A stretch of DNA of 64,000 bases from Patescibacteria group bacterium (GTDB lineage: Bacteria > Patescibacteriota > Patescibacteriia > JAXHNJ01), in contig JBDRMK010000030.1 in the NCBI GenBank assembly GCA_043812155.1, forward strand, positions 8,407-72,406. Reading direction: 5' to 3'. How positions within the stretch are numbered: the stretch's first letter is position 1; the number at the start of each line of letters is the position of its first letter. Positions 3,033 to 13,071 of the stretch are shown in pieces. The notes beneath the pieces are model-generated. The model ran no database searches and had not been told where the DNA came from. It saw only the letters and a program-made list of their open reading frames with translations. Made by a program: the position numbers and the translations under genes.

Positions 3033-6018
<2,986 letters not shown>

Positions 6019-6041
6019 AAAGGAGACATTTTAACTTCCCA

Positions 6042-6070
6042 TTGACAAATTCTTTATATTGTGATAGTAT
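6042..6070 (+). promoter_or_regulatory. Putative sigma70-type promoter upstream of DGR target gene
   Basis: TTGACA (6042-6047), 17-nt spacer, TAGTAT (6065-6070). Confidence 0.4.
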
Positions 6071-6244
6071 AGAGAGTTCTTTAAAATATACTGGCAAATA
6101 GTAGTCATAGCCAAAAGGCACTCATTATCAATCAGATCCAAAATCGAGTTTAGGATATAACTGTCTGTGATGCGTGCTTTCTGGCTATGACTACCAAAGC
6201 GGCAGTCCTCTAGCGGTAACTCCTAAATGAAGGAGGATGACGAC

Positions 6245-6862
6245 ATGGGTAATACCATGACCACATCCGAAATGACCGATGGCCAGATTGAAAGGGCTAT
6301 CGAAATCTTCCGCGCAAAATTGCGGAAGCACAGAAACGAACTGCCGTCTGAGGCAGTTCAGATAGCGCTCGGCCAAGCGGAACTCGGTTCCGAGTGGCTC
6401 GCAGTTCTGCGCCAGCGCGTGGAAGCGATCAACGACAGCTATGAACTGCCGGTCGACTTCGACGACTCGCAGTGGAAGACGATTGACCGTAGCCGCTACG
6501 CATTCGTCGGCGACGTCACGATGGACGACTATCCTGTCACCGAGACAGGCATAAAGAAGGTTCGTTTTCGCGAGCTGGCCTTTGACCACAATCCGACAGA
6601 TCAGGAGGTTCTTGACCGGGCGGAGCAGCTCAACTGCCGCCAACTCAACCGGGCCGAAGCCGAGACCGTCATTCGGAAGAAGTATTCTCCCGAAGAGCTC
6701 GGACGTAATCCGAGAATCGTTCTGATCGGCCCTGCTGTGCGGCGCGACGGTGGGCTCCGCCGGGCGTGTGTCATTGGCCGCGGGGTTGGCGTGAGCCTGT
6801 CCTGGCTCTGGACCGAGTATCGCTGGTATCGGGACTGCCGGTTCGTGGTCGTCTGCAAGTAA
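6245..6862 (+). CDS. DGR variable (target) protein, 205 aa, C-terminal VR
   Basis: AGGAGG RBS 7 nt before ATG 6245; last ~44 codons are the VR; C-terminus ...WLWTEYRWYRDCRFVVVCK; no signal peptide; GC-rich relative to flanks. Confidence 0.8.
   Translation: MGNTMTTSEMTDGQIERAIEIFRAKLRKHRNELPSEAVQIALGQAELGSEWLAVLRQRVEAINDSYELPVDFDDSQWKTIDRSRYAFVGDVTMDDYPVTETGIKKVRFRELAFDHNPTDQEVLDRAEQLNCRQLNRAEAETVIRKKYSPEELGRNPRIVLIGPAVRRDGGLRRACVIGRGVGVSLSWLWTEYRWYRDCRFVVVCK
6727..6859 (+). repeat. DGR variable repeat (VR)
   Basis: 133-bp near-identical match to TR at 7302-7434; 19 mismatches all where TR has adenine, plus 2 non-A mismatches in last 10 bp (IMH-like). Confidence 0.85.
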
Positions 6863-6902
6863 GTGACCTTGGTCACTTGGATCTTTGGGACTTGGTAGTC
6901 CC
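6863..6902 (+). promoter_or_regulatory. Two small hairpins directly after VR/stop codon (possible DGR homing hairpin)
   Basis: GTGACC-TT-GGTCAC (6863-6876) and GGGACT-TGGT-AGTCCC (6887-6902). Confidence 0.35.
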
Positions 6903-6933
6903 TTTGATCCTTGGCCTGCGGTCATGTTATTAA

Positions 6934-6982
6934 AACTCCGTTTCACATTCCTTCGGGAGTGAGGGACGGAGTTTTTCTTTTT
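6934..6982 (+). terminator. Rho-independent terminator after DGR target gene
   Basis: AACTCCGT ... ACGGAGTT 8-bp stem (6934-6941 / 6966-6973) followed by TTTTTCTTTTT. Confidence 0.6.
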
Positions 6983-7301
6983 GGTAAAAAATGTTAAAAT
7001 ATTGTTGGATAGTAAACGACACAGTCCTTGGTTAGCCTTCGACCTGGCTCAGGCCAGGCGGCTAGGGACGGTTGAAATCTGGAGTATCGATCAGCTAGGA
7101 TGTCTGTTCGTTACGGCGATAGACAGTGTGCTTCGATACATCCCACATGAAGATACTTGGTACAGCGTATTAGCGGAGTCAATGCTCCCGAATACAATAC
7201 AACCCAGAGAGTAATTCATCCCTTGATAAGCTCGGGGATGACCCTGAGCGAAGTCCAAGGGTCAATGGGTGGTGGAATAGATGGTACGCTGTACATTGTG
7301 G

Positions 7302-7434
7302 CGGCCCTGCTGTGCGGCGCGACGGTAAGCTCAACCGGGCGTATGTCAATGGCAACGAGGATGGCGTGAACCTGAACTGGAACTGGACCGAGAATCGCTG
7401 GAATCGGAACTGCCGGTTCGTGGTCGCCTGCCAG
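7302..7434 (+). repeat. DGR template repeat (TR)
   Basis: Adenine-rich counterpart of VR (AAC/AAT codons where VR is variable); translated in the VR frame gives N-rich RRDGKLNRAYVNGNEDGVNLNWNWTENRWNRNC. Confidence 0.85.
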
Positions 7435-7449
7435 TCTCTTCTTGTCTTG

Positions 7450-7480
7450 CCCCTCCGGTTAGGCTGGAGGGGTTTTGTTT
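7450..7480 (+). terminator. Hairpin plus T-tract just after TR (overlaps 3' end of avd on opposite strand)
   Basis: CCCCTCC-GGTTAGGCT-GGAGGGG followed by TTTTGTTT. Confidence 0.4.
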
Positions 7481-7869
7481 ACCAGCTGTTTTCTCCAGCC
7501 GCCGAGCATTCTACCTGCTTCAACTAGCGGCTCTATTAACAGAGTGTACTTCTTGGTATCAATAACTTTTAATTCCCAGGCCAAGCGCAAAAAAAACTTT
7601 AAAGCGTCCAGCTTAACCGAAGCTCGGCTGATAATCGGTTGTTTTCCGTCTCGGGAGGCGTAGCCCGCCTCAAGGATTAATTCAAGAATATCGCAGAACA
7701 GGGCGTCTATCTTCTGCCCGAGGGTATAGCGGGAGAGCCGGGGAAGTTGCGGGAGTCCGGCGTGCCAAGTTTTATAAATATCAGCAAGTTTATGAAGAAT
7801 GGGAATATCGTCAAAAACCCGTCGGGGGGGGGGGGTGACATTAAAAGAGTTAAAACGCGGTTGAGGCAT
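7459..7869 (-). CDS. avd: DGR accessory variability determinant (Avd), four-helix-bundle protein
   Basis: Colinear similarity to Bordetella phage bAvd (LGQ..., LDALKFFLRLA vs LAMLRFWLRFLA, EAGRMLGGWRKQLVNK vs EVGRILGSWIARVNRK); lies between TR and RT but on the minus strand. Confidence 0.8.
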   Translation of the reverse strand: MPQPRFNSFNVTPPPRRVFDDIPILHKLADIYKTWHAGLPQLPRLSRYTLGQKIDALFCDILELILEAGYASRDGKQPIISRASVKLDALKFFLRLAWELKVIDTKKYTLLIEPLVEAGRMLGGWRKQLVNKTPPA

Positions 7870-8850
7870 AAATTTGAAGATATTATTTCGTTAGAAAATC
7901 TTTTTGGAGCTTGGCGTGAATTTTTGCCTGGAAAACAGAGTAAGCGCGACGTCCAGAAGTTTTCCCGCCATTTCGCTGATAATATTGTATCGCTTCACGA
8001 GGATTTCGTAAACATGACCTACCGGCACGGCGGGTACGAACATTTCAAAATTTCCGACCCGAAGCCAAGGGATATCCACAAGGCCACGGTGAGAGACCGC
8101 TTGGTTCATCACGCCATATACCGGGTATTATATCCATTCTTCAGCCGCACTTTTATCGCTGACTCTTATTCTTGCCAATTGGATAAGGGGACGCATCGCG
8201 CCACCAGACGTTTTAGACAATTTTCCGATAAAGCGAGCAAAAATAACACGAAAACCGTTTGGATCCTGAAATGCGATATCAAAAAGTTCTTTGCCAGCAT
8301 TGACCAGACAATTCTTTTAAAACAGCTTAAATTGTATATTCCAGATTTGCGGATCGTTAATCTCTTAGAAGAAGTAATAAGCAGTTTTTCTTGGCAACTT
8401 AACAAAGGTTTGCCGTTGGGCAATCTCACTTCGCAACTCTTTGTCAACATCTATATGACGCCGCTTGACCAGTTTATGAAGCATAAGCTTAAAGCCAAAT
8501 ATTATCTGCGCTACGCCGATGATTTCGTGATTGAGTCTCGCGACAAGAAATGGCTTGAATCTCTGATTCCGAAAATAAAAGGTTTTTTAATGAATAATCT
8601 TAAATTACAATTACATTCAAAAAAGGTAATTATTCAAAATCTGGCTTCGGGCGTTGATTTTCTGGGGTGGGTACACTTTCCTAACCATCGGGTTTTGCGA
8701 ACGACAACGAAACGCAGAATGTCGGCCAGAATAAAAGTTCATCCTACTAATGAGACGCTTCAATCGTATCTTGGTTTGCTTTCGCACGGAAATACTCACA
8801 AAATTAAAACCCAAATATTAAACGATTATTTTCTTTCGCGAGGCGAATAG
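7792..8850 (+). CDS. DGR reverse transcriptase
   Basis: RT motif 4 variant LPLGNLTSQLFVNIYM (DGR-specific [I/L]GxxxSQ instead of QGxxxSP), motif 5 YLRYADDFVI, N-terminal LENLFGAWREF; start uncertain (ATG 7792 or TTG 7861); 5' end overlaps avd start head-to-head; G12 tract at 7824-7835. Confidence 0.85.
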   Translation: MKNGNIVKNPSGGGGDIKRVKTRLRHKFEDIISLENLFGAWREFLPGKQSKRDVQKFSRHFADNIVSLHEDFVNMTYRHGGYEHFKISDPKPRDIHKATVRDRLVHHAIYRVLYPFFSRTFIADSYSCQLDKGTHRATRRFRQFSDKASKNNTKTVWILKCDIKKFFASIDQTILLKQLKLYIPDLRIVNLLEEVISSFSWQLNKGLPLGNLTSQLFVNIYMTPLDQFMKHKLKAKYYLRYADDFVIESRDKKWLESLIPKIKGFLMNNLKLQLHSKKVIIQNLASGVDFLGWVHFPNHRVLRTTTKRRMSARIKVHPTNETLQSYLGLLSHGNTHKIKTQILNDYFLSRGE

Positions 8851-9031
8851 GTAAATTTGACAGCTTAAAAATATTTAGCTAAGATAAATTCTCTGTTCAT
8901 TGCGAATGTATTTCCCCGGATCAGGCGCTGGCAACTCAGCCTCAACTGCTGGCCAGTACCCGTGCATAAACTCGCTAGCAGACTGCGTAATTGCTTAGCG
9001 CCTGGTCCCAATTTTTACAGAGGTGATTAAA

Positions 9032-9205
9032 ATGAAAAAAGAGAAAGAGCCACTGAAAGGCCGGGATTATGTAAAATTCCAGCGCTTACTTGCGAAAGCC
9101 GAAGCCGAAGGCCGGCTGGATGGCAAACATGTCTGTCCGGTTTGCGGCATGCGTTATCTTTGGGCCAGGGAAGCCGATGACTGTTGTCGGATAACTTCCG
9201 ATTAA
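9032..9205 (+). CDS. Small Cys-containing hypothetical protein (57 aa)
   Basis: AGGTGA RBS; CPVCG...CC motif; downstream hairpin plus T-run terminator at ~9222-9250. Confidence 0.35.
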   Translation: MKKEKEPLKGRDYVKFQRLLAKAEAEGRLDGKHVCPVCGMRYLWAREADDCCRITSD

Positions 9206-9900: not shown

Positions 9901-10284
9901 ATGCCGGAAAAAATCTTATTCAAAACCAGCAAATTTATTTTTAAAGAATTAGTCTTGGATGTCATTTATTTTCCGGTTTGGTGGTATACCAAGGGTTTAA
10001 AGAAAGCTTGGATTTTTTTTACCGGCGAAGTTTCGGATTGGGCTAACCGCTTGTCGCTTAAAATTCTTTTTAAGAGCATGTTCAAGCCGATGTACGGCGA
10101 TTACAGCCGCAGCGGCCGGATCATCAGTTTTTTCATGAGGATCATTGTTTTCGGGTTTAAGCTGATATTAATGGTTATCTGGCTTACGGTGCTTTTGGTC
10201 ATATTTTTGCTCTGGGCGGTGATGCCTGTTTTTATCGTCTACCTCATCATATTAAATATTACCGGCCAAAGAGGCCTTTTTTAA
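9901..10284 (+). CDS. Hypothetical membrane protein
   Basis: Hydrophobic C-terminal half with two predicted TM helices. Confidence 0.45.
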   Translation: MPEKILFKTSKFIFKELVLDVIYFPVWWYTKGLKKAWIFFTGEVSDWANRLSLKILFKSMFKPMYGDYSRSGRIISFFMRIIVFGFKLILMVIWLTVLLVIFLLWAVMPVFIVYLIILNITGQRGLF

Positions 10285-10287
10285 TTT

Positions 10288-13071
10288 ATGGCGCCAGAAA
10301 ATAAAATCAAGGAGATGAGCTTTATTTACTGCCCTGACTGCAAAGGCCAGAGTTTTTTCTTTGATGAAAATAAAAAATTTAAGCCCTGCCCCAAATGCCA
10401 GTCTTTGGGCCTGGCCGCCTATTTTCGCGGCCGTTATCTGGTCTGGCGCAAAAAAATTTCCGTCTTGCGAATTTTGGAAGAGAAAACGGAAAAAACGATC
10501 CGGGCGGTGATCAACGGCTTATTAATAATGATCGGTCTTTTGGGCCTGTTTTTAGGTTTCTGGCAATTCTACCAGCATTTCAGTCAGGGCTATCGTTTTT
10601 ATGATTTTTTGCTTTTGCGGAATACTTCGCTTTTATTTTTTTGGCTTTCTCTATTGGTTGATTTATATATTTTTTACCGCCTAGAAAAAGAAAGAGATTC
10701 TTTTCCTCATCTAGTCCGGGATTTTCCGGAAAAAACAGTACCGCCGCCGGAATCTTTGCGCTCTTTTAATGAGATATTGGAGAATAAAAGAATAACGGAA
10801 GAGGTTTCAAAATATTTAACCGGTGAATCAAATGAGGCGATAGAAAGAGGCTGGGAAATTGCCAAGCGTTTTAACCATGCCACCCTGGAGCCGATTCATA
10901 TTTTGGCGTCGGTGGTCGCGACCAAAGAAATAAAGATCATGATGGCGAGGTTAGCTTTAATGCCGAATAAATTGATCAGCCGGATCGCCGGTCTGTTAAA
11001 TAAACTCCCCAAACAAGAAGGCGGCGAGCCGATCCTCTCCGAGAACTTTAATCGGATGATTTATTTCGCCTATGAAGAAGCTTATTTGGGAAAAAGATCA
11101 GCTATCGGCGTGCCGGATCTGATCATTGCCTTAGCCCGCACCGGAACGGACGCGCAGGAAATTCTTTATGATCTGGGGATTGATTTTGATAAATTAAGAA
11201 ACGTGGTGGAGTGGCTGAATATCCAGGAGAAATTGATCCATCAATGGTCTTCTTTAAGGTCAAGAGCGATCCGCAAACCAAAAGGGGGGATAAACCGGGC
11301 CATGACGGCCATTGCCACGCCGGTCCTGGATCAGTTTTCCCGGGATCTGACTCTTTTGGCCCGGTCAGGCGCCCTGCCTCTTTGTGTCGGCCGGGAAAAA
11401 GAAATAGGGGAAGTATTCCGGGTCTTGGAATCGGGCAAGGCCAATCCATTATTAGTCGGTTTCCCGGGGACGGGCAAGACCAATATTATAGATGGGATCG
11501 CCAATCTCATGGCTTCCGAAGACGTGCCTGAAATTTTACAGGACAAGAGACTGGTTAGTTTGTCGGTGTCCGCCTTGGTTTCGGGCGCGGGCGCCATCGG
11601 CGAGCTTGAAGAAAGATTGTCCGCCATTATTGACGAGGTCATCCGTTCAGGCAATATCGTTTTATATTTTGATAATCTTCAAAATTTGGTCGGCGTGTCT
11701 TCGGGCGGGGGTAAAACCATGGATCTGTCGCAAGTGCTGGCCGAGGCTTTGCAAAAGGGATATTTTCTGGCCATCGCTTCTTCTGATCCCATATCATACG
11801 CCCAGTATATAGAACGAAGCGGCGGACTGGCCGGGGTTTTCCAGAAAGTGGAAATATTGGAGCCGGAAACAAATGAAGCGATCAGGATCCTGGAAAGCCA
11901 GGCCGGAGCGGTTGAATACCGACAAAAAGTATATTTTTCCTATGAGGCGATCGAGAAAGCGGTCACTTTATCCCAGCGTTATATTCATGACCGGTATCTG
12001 CCGGAAAAAGCGATCAGTCTTATGCAGGAAGTGGCGGTTTATGTGCGGAAAGCCCGAGGCCATGGCGCGGCTGTGACCGGCGAAGACGTGGCTCTGATCG
12101 TCTCCCAGCGGGCGAACGTCAAGGTGACCAAGATCACGGAAAAAGAAAGCGAAAAATTATTAAATCTGGAAAGCTACATCCACGAAAGAATCATCGGCCA
12201 GGAAGAAGCGGTCAAGGCGGTCGCCGGGGCTTTGAGGCGGGCGCGCGTTGACTTGCGGGATATCAATCGGCCGATCGCCAACCTCTTATTTGTCGGTCCC
12301 ACCGGCGTTGGCAAAACTGAATTAGCCAAGACCGTGGCCGAAGTTTATTTCGGCTCGGAAGAAAATATGATCCGGCTGGATATGTCGGAATACCAGGACC
12401 AGTCGTCTTTGAACCGCTTGCTTGGCGCGCCGCCGGGCTATGCCGGGGCGGGCGTCGGCGGATATCTGACGGAAAGCGTCCGGAACAATCCTTTTTCCCT
12501 GGTGCTTTTAGATGAATTGGAAAAAGCCCACCCAGATGTTTTAAATGTATTTTTACAGGTGATGGATGACGGCCGTTTAACGGATTCTTTGGGCCGGACC
12601 ATTGATTTCAGCAATGTGATATTGATCGCCACTTCCAACGCGGCCACGCCGCATATCCAAAGCCGGCTGAATGAAGGGATAAAATTGGACGTTATAAAGA
12701 AGGAGCTGATGGAAGAAATCCTTTTCCAGTTTTTCCGGCCGGAGTTCATCAACCGTTTTGATAATGTCATTCTTTTCAAGCCACTAACTTTAGAGGATAT
12801 TAAAAAAGTGGTAAAACTTCTTCTAAAGAAAGTGGAGAAAAGATTGAAAGAAAAAGGGATTGTTTTACAGGTTTCCGAGGAAATGATCCACGATTTGGCT
12901 AATTCAGGCTACGACCCTATCTACGGCGCGCGGCCTTTAAGAAGATTGATCCAGGAAACCGTGGATAACGCTTTAGCCAATTATTTACTCCAGGGGAAAT
13001 TAACCCGTAGAGACGTGGCGGTTTTGGAACCAGGCGGGACGATCAGAGTGGAAAAGGCGAGGGAGCTGTAA
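10288..13071 (+). CDS. Clp/Hsp100-family AAA+ ATPase (ClpC-like) with N-terminal zinc ribbon and membrane anchor
   Basis: CPDCxG...CPKCQ zinc ribbon, TM segment (LLIMIGLLGLFLGFW), Clp N-domain, D1 GFPGTGKTN, D2 Walker A GPTGVGKTELAKTVA and sensor regions. Confidence 0.8.
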   Translation: MAPENKIKEMSFIYCPDCKGQSFFFDENKKFKPCPKCQSLGLAAYFRGRYLVWRKKISVLRILEEKTEKTIRAVINGLLIMIGLLGLFLGFWQFYQHFSQGYRFYDFLLLRNTSLLFFWLSLLVDLYIFYRLEKERDSFPHLVRDFPEKTVPPPESLRSFNEILENKRITEEVSKYLTGESNEAIERGWEIAKRFNHATLEPIHILASVVATKEIKIMMARLALMPNKLISRIAGLLNKLPKQEGGEPILSENFNRMIYFAYEEAYLGKRSAIGVPDLIIALARTGTDAQEILYDLGIDFDKLRNVVEWLNIQEKLIHQWSSLRSRAIRKPKGGINRAMTAIATPVLDQFSRDLTLLARSGALPLCVGREKEIGEVFRVLESGKANPLLVGFPGTGKTNIIDGIANLMASEDVPEILQDKRLVSLSVSALVSGAGAIGELEERLSAIIDEVIRSGNIVLYFDNLQNLVGVSSGGGKTMDLSQVLAEALQKGYFLAIASSDPISYAQYIERSGGLAGVFQKVEILEPETNEAIRILESQAGAVEYRQKVYFSYEAIEKAVTLSQRYIHDRYLPEKAISLMQEVAVYVRKARGHGAAVTGEDVALIVSQRANVKVTKITEKESEKLLNLESYIHERIIGQEEAVKAVAGALRRARVDLRDINRPIANLLFVGPTGVGKTELAKTVAEVYFGSEENMIRLDMSEYQDQSSLNRLLGAPPGYAGAGVGGYLTESVRNNPFSLVLLDELEKAHPDVLNVFLQVMDDGRLTDSLGRTIDFSNVILIATSNAATPHIQSRLNEGIKLDVIKKELMEEILFQFFRPEFINRFDNVILFKPLTLEDIKKVVKLLLKKVEKRLKEKGIVLQVSEEMIHDLANSGYDPIYGARPLRRLIQETVDNALANYLLQGKLTRRDVAVLEPGGTIRVEKAREL

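Follow-up and report, generated by a model that had tools for sequence, protein, structure and literature searches.

We analysed a window of 64,000 nucleotides (the whole stretch of DNA presented here, positions 8,407 to 72,406 of contig JBDRMK010000030.1, assembly GCA_043812155.1, from a Patescibacteria group bacterium; positions below are those of the window) and found that it carries a diversity-generating retroelement (DGR), in which a target gene with its variable region (VR) on the plus strand is followed by an RNA domain, a template region (TR) on the plus strand, the accessory gene avd on the minus strand and a reverse transcriptase (RT) gene on the plus strand. Every defining DGR feature that could be tested was found at the locus, and we are nearly certain that it is a complete DGR in a genome of the Patescibacteria (candidate phyla radiation, CPR). 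An earlier note on this DNA had proposed a complete DGR with target, VR, TR, divergent Avd and DGR-type RT, and each of these components was recovered. The identity of the element is solid, and on the DGR level it is an ordinary new member of a known, Patescibacteria-restricted kind. Because DGRs are common in Patescibacteria, we place the novelty of the locus in the layout of its RNA and in a homopolymer tract in avd; both of these, and the repeats that follow VR, are absent from the earlier note. The main features are as follows.

6245 to 6862, plus strand: target gene, 205 aa, with an N-terminal three-helix region and a predicted C-terminal C-type-lectin-like domain
6727 to 6860, plus strand: VR, the last 44 residues of the target, with 20 mismatches to TR
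6834 to 6860, plus strand: 3' end of VR (last 27 nt), like an initiation of mutagenic homing (IMH) site, with no A-type changes and both non-A differences
7006 to 7297, plus strand: conserved structured RNA domain of ~290 nt with helices P1 to P6, abutting the 5' end of TR and taken here as the equivalent of the spacer RNA (Sp) of known DGRs
7302 to 7435, plus strand: TR, a non-coding near-copy of VR with 27 adenines
7459 to 7869, minus strand: avd, 136 aa, starting at ATG 7869
7861 to 8850, plus strand: DGR reverse transcriptase, probable start TTG 7861 (329 aa), alternative start ATG 7792

Upon recounting, the VR/TR repeat is gapless at an offset of 575 and holds 20 mismatches over 133 nt, of which 18 fall on TR adenines, with 27 adenines in the 133 nt of TR (~20%; hypergeometric p = 9.6e-14). 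The counts of 21 mismatches and 19 at adenines given earlier were thus each too high by one; the adenine enrichment itself stood, as did the placing of two non-A mismatches within the last 10 nt, at 6852 (T vs C) and 6857 (A vs C), where TR has C. In the target frame, all 18 A-type mismatches affect codon position 1 or 2, and none affects position 3. AAC or AAT make up 9 of the 17 A-containing TR codons, and TR translated in the VR frame reads RRDGKLNRAYVNGNEDGVNLNWNWTENRWNRNC, as had been quoted. The Bordetella phage DGR has an IMH/IMH* pair (PMC3240598), and the 3' end of the window VR shows an analogous pattern. If all 27 adenines were mutable, the theoretical repertoire would comprise 4^27 DNA variants and ~8e15 protein variants. 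When searching the 64-kb window with TR-derived sequences in which A was treated as N, no second VR was found, leaving a single VR.

Relatives were collected by a pattern from two invariant RNA blocks, which gave 66 metagenome stretches, nearly all with full-length similarity. The same gene order occurs in metagenome-assembled genomes (MAGs) of Kerfeldbacteria and in dozens of metagenome contigs with differing targets, and in 36 distinct loci VR and TR differ by 11-31 A-type and 0-3 other mismatches. The bare existence of a repeat, and nothing more, would also be accounted for by an ordinary partial gene duplication or pseudogene fragment whose adenine bias is chance or compositional; with 18 of 20 mismatches on 20% of the TR positions, none in codon position 3, and the same pattern in 36 loci, the recount refutes this explanation, whose probability we put at practically nil. 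From the established DGR mechanism, TR RNA would be reverse-transcribed by RT and Avd with misincorporation at adenines, and the complementary DNA (cDNA) would then replace VR, rewriting 17 codons.

The RT matches RVT_1 (E 4e-19) and, over its full length, the Bordetella phage RT known from cryo-EM (bRT, 8ub7_A; E 3e-41, residues 3-317 to 7-317), with LPLGNLTSQ aligned to IPIGSLTSQ and RYADD to RYMDD. It therefore carries the DGR-clade signature, [I/L]GxxxSQ in place of QGxxxSP together with YxDD; the motifs LGNLTSQ and YADD had been read correctly before, and bRT is the best solved relative. The previously assigned start at 7792 gives way to TTG 7861 (MRHKFEDI...) as the more likely one, since colinearity with homologues and bRT favours it; the frame is open from 7747, and ATG 7792 is the less likely alternative. 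No NCBIfam RT model reaches its cutoff with the window RT. Matches to group II intron and retron RTs are weaker (E 1e-11 to 1e-15).

An element of retron or group II intron type rather than a DGR would fit the RNA described below in one respect, in that a 5' strand, structured RNA, template and 3' complementary strand approximate the a2-msr-msd-a1 layout (PMC8867640). We consider this very improbable: the RT is far nearer bRT than retron RTs (1e-11 to 1e-12) or group II intron RTs (1e-14), the retron St85 model scores 58 bits (cutoff 235) and TIGR04416 (group II intron) 128 bits (cutoff 300), no retron msr or intron RNA family matches in Rfam, and Avd, VR/TR and the adenine bias are DGR hallmarks. 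The element thus qualifies neither as a retron nor as a group II intron.

The protein that the earlier note had called an Avd homologue matches Pfam bAvd (PF22296) at 49 bits (cutoff 40, E 9.5e-13) and NCBIfam DivGenRetAVD (NF033474) at 76 bits, just under the cutoff of 80 (E 2.4e-21). Comparison with PDB by sequence gave no bAvd match and only a spurious pentatricopeptide repeat (PPR) one, the likeness to bAvd being visible to profile models only. The RT start at TTG 7861 and the avd start at ATG 7869 on the minus strand overlap head to head by 9 nt, and the start codons of many relatives adjoin directly, forming the palindrome CATATG; therefore each promoter would lie inside the other gene, or RT would be expressed by read-through from the TR RNA.

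When aligning the window with two Kerfeldbacteria loci, we observed that the spacer between VR and TR is more conserved than the coding regions, with length variation in discrete blocks. (Three genome loci came from a narrower target alignment; a broad alignment of 53 target sequences had no conserved stretch.) Two small open reading frames (ORFs) of the spacer, 6981-7214 and 7157-7369, were rejected as coding, because their conservation lacks codon periodicity and is accounted for by covariation, and their indels fall at helix tips. Almost all loci with sufficient flank have the RNA domain between a VR-bearing gene and TR, which begins 0-20 nt after it. The target proteins beside it are often unrelated to that of the window, from which we conclude that the domain travels with TR, Avd and RT rather than with the target.

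The RNAalifold structure of 44 distinct sequences has 50 pairs, of which 36 show compensatory changes; it pairs 95.5% of cells, a share that drops to 31-43% on sliding the partners by 1-3 columns, and the covariation score is 0.547, against at most 0.136 in the slid controls, with none of 500 shuffles reaching the observed values. A covariance model built on 33 sequences finds a single match in the window (7006-7297, 161.9 bits, E 1e-44), 55 instances in related loci and none in 33 viral control contigs; in its alignment 96.4% of cells are paired (slid controls 33-43%) and 37 of 49 pairs show double changes. These controls arose from searching viral contigs, where one RNA pattern had 0 matches and the other 33, all by chance (0 nhmmer or covariance-model matches). 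Rfam 15 returned nothing at gathering thresholds across the whole window and only chance-level mir-2329 and sR36 in 5900-9100 at E<=5. Rfam 15 includes the RT-associated motifs of Weinberg et al. 2017, among them the BPP-1 spacer motif RT-10 (PMC5737381); judged from these searches, the window domain is none of the curated RT-associated motifs. The published comparative analysis covered only 40 nt upstream and 100 nt downstream of TR and would for that reason have missed a 5' domain. As a structure the domain is solid, and very probably it is an RNA that belongs to the DGR.

We also observe shortened RNA domains of 120-190 nt with P3 or other parts deleted (L073 1226-1388, L059 2877-2996, L083/L077), which could serve as natural deletion variants, and domains with no detectable RT nearby (L082, L071, L098). 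In L005 (CAZNKO010000057.1), binned as 'uncultured Gammaproteobacteria', the same target family occurs, as does the beginning of this RNA domain; misbinning is the probable cause, or else transfer.

Two further features delimit the transcript.

6992 to 7000, plus strand: extended -10 box of the DGR RNA, TGTTAAAAT, with a probable transcription start at ~7007
7449 to 7480, plus strand: GC-rich hairpin (7449-7473) and U-run, the putative terminator of the DGR RNA and candidate Avd-binding stem-loop

A TAnAAT box lies ~7 nt before the invariant GGAUAGUAAACGA, at a fixed distance, in 44 of 44 loci, and the terminator scan found 11 pairs and the tail TTTGTTT at 7449-7480. Within ~40-60 nt after TR, most loci examined show a short linker of pyrimidines, then a GC-rich hairpin with a U-run; in the window only ~45 nt, consisting of linker, hairpin and U-run, separate TR from the antisense avd 3' end. 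The canonical layout, a structured spacer of ~100-140 nt located 3' of TR on the same strand and before RT, is thus not what the window holds. Most simply, the DGR RNA would be a transcription unit of its own, ~7007-7480 (~470 nt), made of 5' domain, TR, linker and terminator hairpin.

The long-range pairing around TR involves four strands.

7145 to 7153, plus strand: strand a, ACAUGAAGA, A-rich, just 5' of a near-invariant UACUUGG; putative primer strand
7437 to 7445, plus strand: strand a', UCUUCUUGU, in the linker, starting 2 nt after TR and pairing with strand a
7160 to 7171, plus strand: 5' strand of P4, pairing with 7283-7294; putative cDNA-stop duplex
7283 to 7294, plus strand: 3' strand of P4, ending 7 nt before TR

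Strands a and a' are complementary at 8 of 9 positions in the window, and they co-vary across loci as the pairs AAUGAAGA/UCUUCAUU, AAUAAAAA/UUUUUAUU, CUAGAAGA/UCUUCUAG, ACGAAG/CUUCGU and GUGAAGGAA/UUUCCUCAC. P4 is a 12-bp long-range helix in which 10 of 12 pairs show compensatory changes. Read 5' to 3', the window has, before TR, strand a ending in a conserved A, the 6 nt UACUUG, the 5' strand of P4, the P5 stem-loop and a conserved A-rich tract (consensus AAAUAAAAUACAG). In the Bordetella ribonucleoprotein (RNP), the primer strand Sp47-56 pairs with TR117-129, two nt later Sp59-70 pairs just upstream of TR to form the 11-12 bp of the 'cPRT Stop' duplex, next come a short stem-loop and adenosines that make A-minor contacts, and an Avd-binding stem-loop stands just 3' of TR (bioRxiv 10.1101/2023.10.23.563531).

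Mapped onto that RNP, a/a' would serve as template:primer duplex, primed from the conserved A in which strand a ends, P4 would act as the cDNA-stop duplex, and the hairpin after a' would stand in for the Avd-binding stem-loop. Synthesis that extends strand a at its 3' end, from a nick 3'-OH or a 2'-OH branch, would then copy C7436, then U7435, and proceed through TR until P4. The Bordetella chain is closed between template and primer strands and open after the stop strand; in that of the window, the closure lies between the two stop strands (P5-P6) and the opening between domain I (P1-P3) and the 3' hairpin. By this analogy, the simplest reading is that the window RNA has the architecture of the Bordetella TR-Sp RNA in circularly permuted form, and a retron-like topology. 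The helices themselves are observed; for the priming and stop assignments, which follow from the analogy, we see an even chance of being correct.

The 5' domain could instead be no equivalent of Sp at all and act as a ligand- or protein-responsive regulatory leader or as a stability or processing element, with priming and stop elsewhere, for example in avd-antisense read-through. Most known Avd-containing DGRs have the predicted Avd-binding stem-loop and the stop-duplex strand 3' of TR, a hairpin does follow TR in the window, and the invariant P1/P2 core with its conserved unpaired nucleotides resembles a ligand- or protein-binding core. We nevertheless hold this to be rather unlikely: in most loci examined the terminator-like hairpin and U-run come within ~40-60 nt after TR, TR is enclosed by the a/a' pairing and has P4 next to it at a near-constant 0-20 nt, the order of a, P4, stem-loop and A-rich tract is colinear with Bordetella Sp47-81, and no Rfam riboswitch or leader family matches.

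We also observed a homopolymer run near the N-terminus of avd.

7824 to 7835: G12 run on the plus strand, C12 in the avd sense strand, in TPPP codons near the Avd N-terminus; candidate contingency or slippage tract

It is the sole G or C run of at least 8 nt in the 64-kb window, and 28 distinct related loci, or 29 if the window is counted, have a G7-G12 run in the corresponding place (for example L004 5378, L104 2173 and L109 1116). The run encodes T/x-P-P-P ~8-10 codons before the first Avd helix, within the first ~15 avd codons. When scoring the frame in 28 loci, that is 27 relatives and the window, we found avd in frame in 9 (window included, from ATG 7869) and shifted by +1 or -1 in 18, with one ambiguous locus. 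The out-of-frame loci keep the conserved ATG and N-terminal peptide (e.g. MTFNxT) off-frame with an intact Avd body, with an in-frame stop upstream. One C separates the sister loci L109, in frame with C9, and L104, out of frame with C10. A start of avd 3' of the C-run was rejected, since there is no in-frame start there and the upstream peptide (MTFNxT and similar) is conserved in the ATG frame.

The Avd bodies stay open (stop-free for at least 45 codons) and conserved (27-63% tblastn identity); because about one third of the loci are in frame, the shifts go in both directions and the bodies are open and conserved, reversible slippage of DNA or transcript is favoured over decay. Duplicate contigs agree in run length, which disfavours random sequencing error. 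These frame patterns suggest that the run may be a phase-variation or transcriptional-slippage switch for DGR activity, transcriptional slippage and DNA-level phase variation being equally viable. Homopolymeric contingency loci are poly-G/C tracts in the 5' coding regions of Campylobacter, Neisseria and Bordetella genes. The avd run resembles them in being made of G/C, 7-12 nt long and located in the first 15 codons, and in a frame state that looks random among related loci, with about one third in frame; unlike in those loci, population length polymorphism was not observed. We found no paper linking DGRs to homopolymer switching in open-access full text, and to our knowledge no homopolymeric contingency tract has been linked to a DGR accessory gene.

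Sister loci with identical TR allow VR to be compared between samples. L055 and L100, from different samples, differ in VR at 19 positions, 16 of them at TR adenines, with 0 differences in the flanks; L060 and L079, also from different samples and with identical TR and flanks, have 4 VR differences, all 4 at TR adenines. This is direct evidence that the lineage diversifies in nature, and the window element is presumably active as well. Conversely, the element might be a relic that diversified VR in the past and is now silent or sporadic, its VR/TR pattern being historical; the C-run puts avd out of frame in some two thirds of related loci, so that an OFF state is common in the clade. This seems unlikely to us, given an in-frame avd in the window, an RT ORF that is unbroken and has the catalytic YADD, a TR free of decay with 0 non-A mismatches across the mutagenised part, and recent between-sample turnover of VR in the sister loci.

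Directly after VR the plus strand carries a further array.

6861 to 6924, plus strand: nested hairpins with YTTGG repeats of 8-nt period, directly after the target stop codon

The post-VR DNA folds with a z score of -4.7, and across 36 loci TTGG occurs 2.44 times per 80 nt after VR against a background of 0.52 (~4.7-fold), the commonest spacing being 8 nt. By analogy with the BPP-1 cruciform, the TTGG hairpins are a candidate target-recognition element that could mark VR as the recipient, because TR has no such TTGG-repeat flank.

Overall, the best explanation is, with a probability of roughly 0.8, that the locus is a functional-looking, cellular, Patescibacteria-restricted DGR whose RNA is built differently from the Bordetella phage paradigm. 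Several points weigh against it. The a/a' helix is short and has a U-U mismatch in the window, and its support is a cognate versus non-cognate duplex test (-6.2 vs -4.4 kcal/mol, none of 2000 permutations as good) in which the permutations ignore shared ancestry; the MAFFT composite alignment left a' out of register and gave no position-wise covariation. Helices P1 and P2 are invariant and hence carry no covariation evidence. Since the collecting pattern was taken from the RNA itself, the counts do not give the frequency of the domain across the Patescibacterial DGR clade. Part of the DGR RNA could extend past the terminator into avd antisense, where conservation is inseparable from coding constraint, and the transcript ends, the priming site and the activity of the window element are inferred from sequence.

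The permuted mechanism and the avd switch are thus plausible but unproven, and the joint proposition, that this lineage uses a circularly permuted, retron-like DGR RNA with its Sp-equivalent 5' of TR and also gates mutagenesis through the poly-C tract in avd, is tentative, at a little under even odds. No mention of a large conserved 5' RNA domain, an avd C-run or TTGG repeats was found in DGR papers (open-access full text) or Rfam.

The target gene and its surroundings include three regulatory features.

6042 to 6070, plus strand: probable target promoter, TTGACA, 17 nt, TAGTAT, with TG before the -10
6076 to 6244, plus strand: structured target mRNA leader, with a long hairpin at ~6101-6194 followed by the Shine-Dalgarno AAGGAGG
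6932 to 6983, plus strand: probable intrinsic terminator for the target gene, with the stem AAAACTCCGT/ACGGAGTTTT and a T-run after it

The promoter is the best sigma-70-like match in 5900-9100 (10 of 12 positions) and is a consensus match only. The leader has a minimum free energy of -56.2 kcal/mol (z -5.5); its stem is kept with compensatory changes in L108 (121-399) and L102 (129-318), and its sequence is matched also in L093 and L082, with a variable apical part and a conserved Shine-Dalgarno region GGAGGATGACG. The terminator was read from the sequence, its inner stem at 6949-6966 being in the terminator scan. Translation most likely starts at 6245, where AAGGAGG lies 7 nt upstream and homologues begin at the same Met.

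Fold prediction of the target C-terminus, as the earlier note had proposed, models it with a C-type-lectin (CLec) fold, which places VR at the C-terminus of a CLec-fold protein as in other DGRs. No signal peptide, transmembrane or hydrophobic segment was detected in the 205-aa target, in agreement with the earlier reading as to the signal peptide. The target has a 100% identical counterpart, a hypothetical protein, in a Patescibacteria MAG and belongs to a family of ~50 proteins of ~200 aa with no Pfam domain. Its N-terminal helical region (MTDGQIERAIEIFRAQLRKH...) has ~70% identity to proteins with a different C-terminal half (P0035-P0053); these halves are unrelated in sequence, yet end in a VR-like W/G-rich tail, which suggests domain shuffling among DGR targets. 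Roux et al. (PMC8144416) noted that DGR targets are modular, and the shared N-terminus agrees with this.

Close target homologues with no adjacent TR, avd or RT occur in L007/L008 (3501-4118), L009 (2757-4109, with two tandem target paralogues), L010 and L011, and may be trans targets or orphans. The L007 target adjoins the same pair of a 124-aa gene and a ClpB-like gene as in the window (9901-13071). Just 3' of RT, a small ORF (9023-9205, 60 aa) has a zinc-ribbon-like CxxC...CC motif and no Pfam match. A tRNA/tmRNA scan found none.

If the permuted RNA is real, it would be a second, sequence-unrelated architecture with the same helices in another chain order, and hence an independent natural test of which elements are essential, namely the primer:template duplex, the stop duplex and the stem-loop with adenosines. 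A compact, self-terminated RNA of ~470 nt would then be usable for reconstitution and engineering. The frameshift-prone avd tract would, if confirmed, make the first proposed case of an on/off switch built into a DGR and would bear on how hosts limit the cost of hypermutation. The small target with its modular N-terminus and no export signal bears on what these cells diversify intracellularly.

Cellular DGRs of Patescibacteria/CPR were reportedly first described by Paul et al. 2017. They constitute 'DGR clade 2', whose targets have no recognisable domains (Roux et al. 2021, PMC8144416). The window DGR resembles this clade in its Patescibacteria host, chromosomal context, target with no transmembrane segment or other conserved domain, and C-terminal VR; its probable membership of clade 2 is judged from host and target properties. 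When compared with retron non-coding RNAs (a2-msr-msd-a1), the window RNA is alike in that a strand 5' of the structured RNA pairs just 3' of the template and a conserved nucleotide stands beside the template 3' end. It differs in the RT clade, in matching no msr/msd family and in a protein-coding-like template for retrohoming rather than for multicopy single-stranded DNA (msDNA), branch priming being here a proposal.

The closest comparison is with the DGR of Bordetella phage BPP-1 (mtd-VR, avd, TR, Sp, brt; RNP structures PDB 8UB7-8UBE). Unlike in BPP-1, avd in the window occupies the opposite strand between TR and RT, diverging from RT, and it contains the C-run. The large structured RNA stands 5' of TR and not 3' as Sp does, with ~45 nt ending in a terminator after TR, and has no sequence or Rfam likeness to the Sp motif (RT-10). 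The target is small and has no export signal, whereas that of BPP-1 is a phage tail fibre, and the TTGG array of 8-nt period after VR contrasts with a single GC hairpin in BPP-1. At the same time, the two share a full-length homologous RT with [I/L]GxLTSQ and Y[A/M]DD, a homologous Avd, adenine-specific TR/VR differences, a VR at the C-terminus of a protein with a known or predicted CLec fold, and an IMH-like 3' end with a hairpin after VR.

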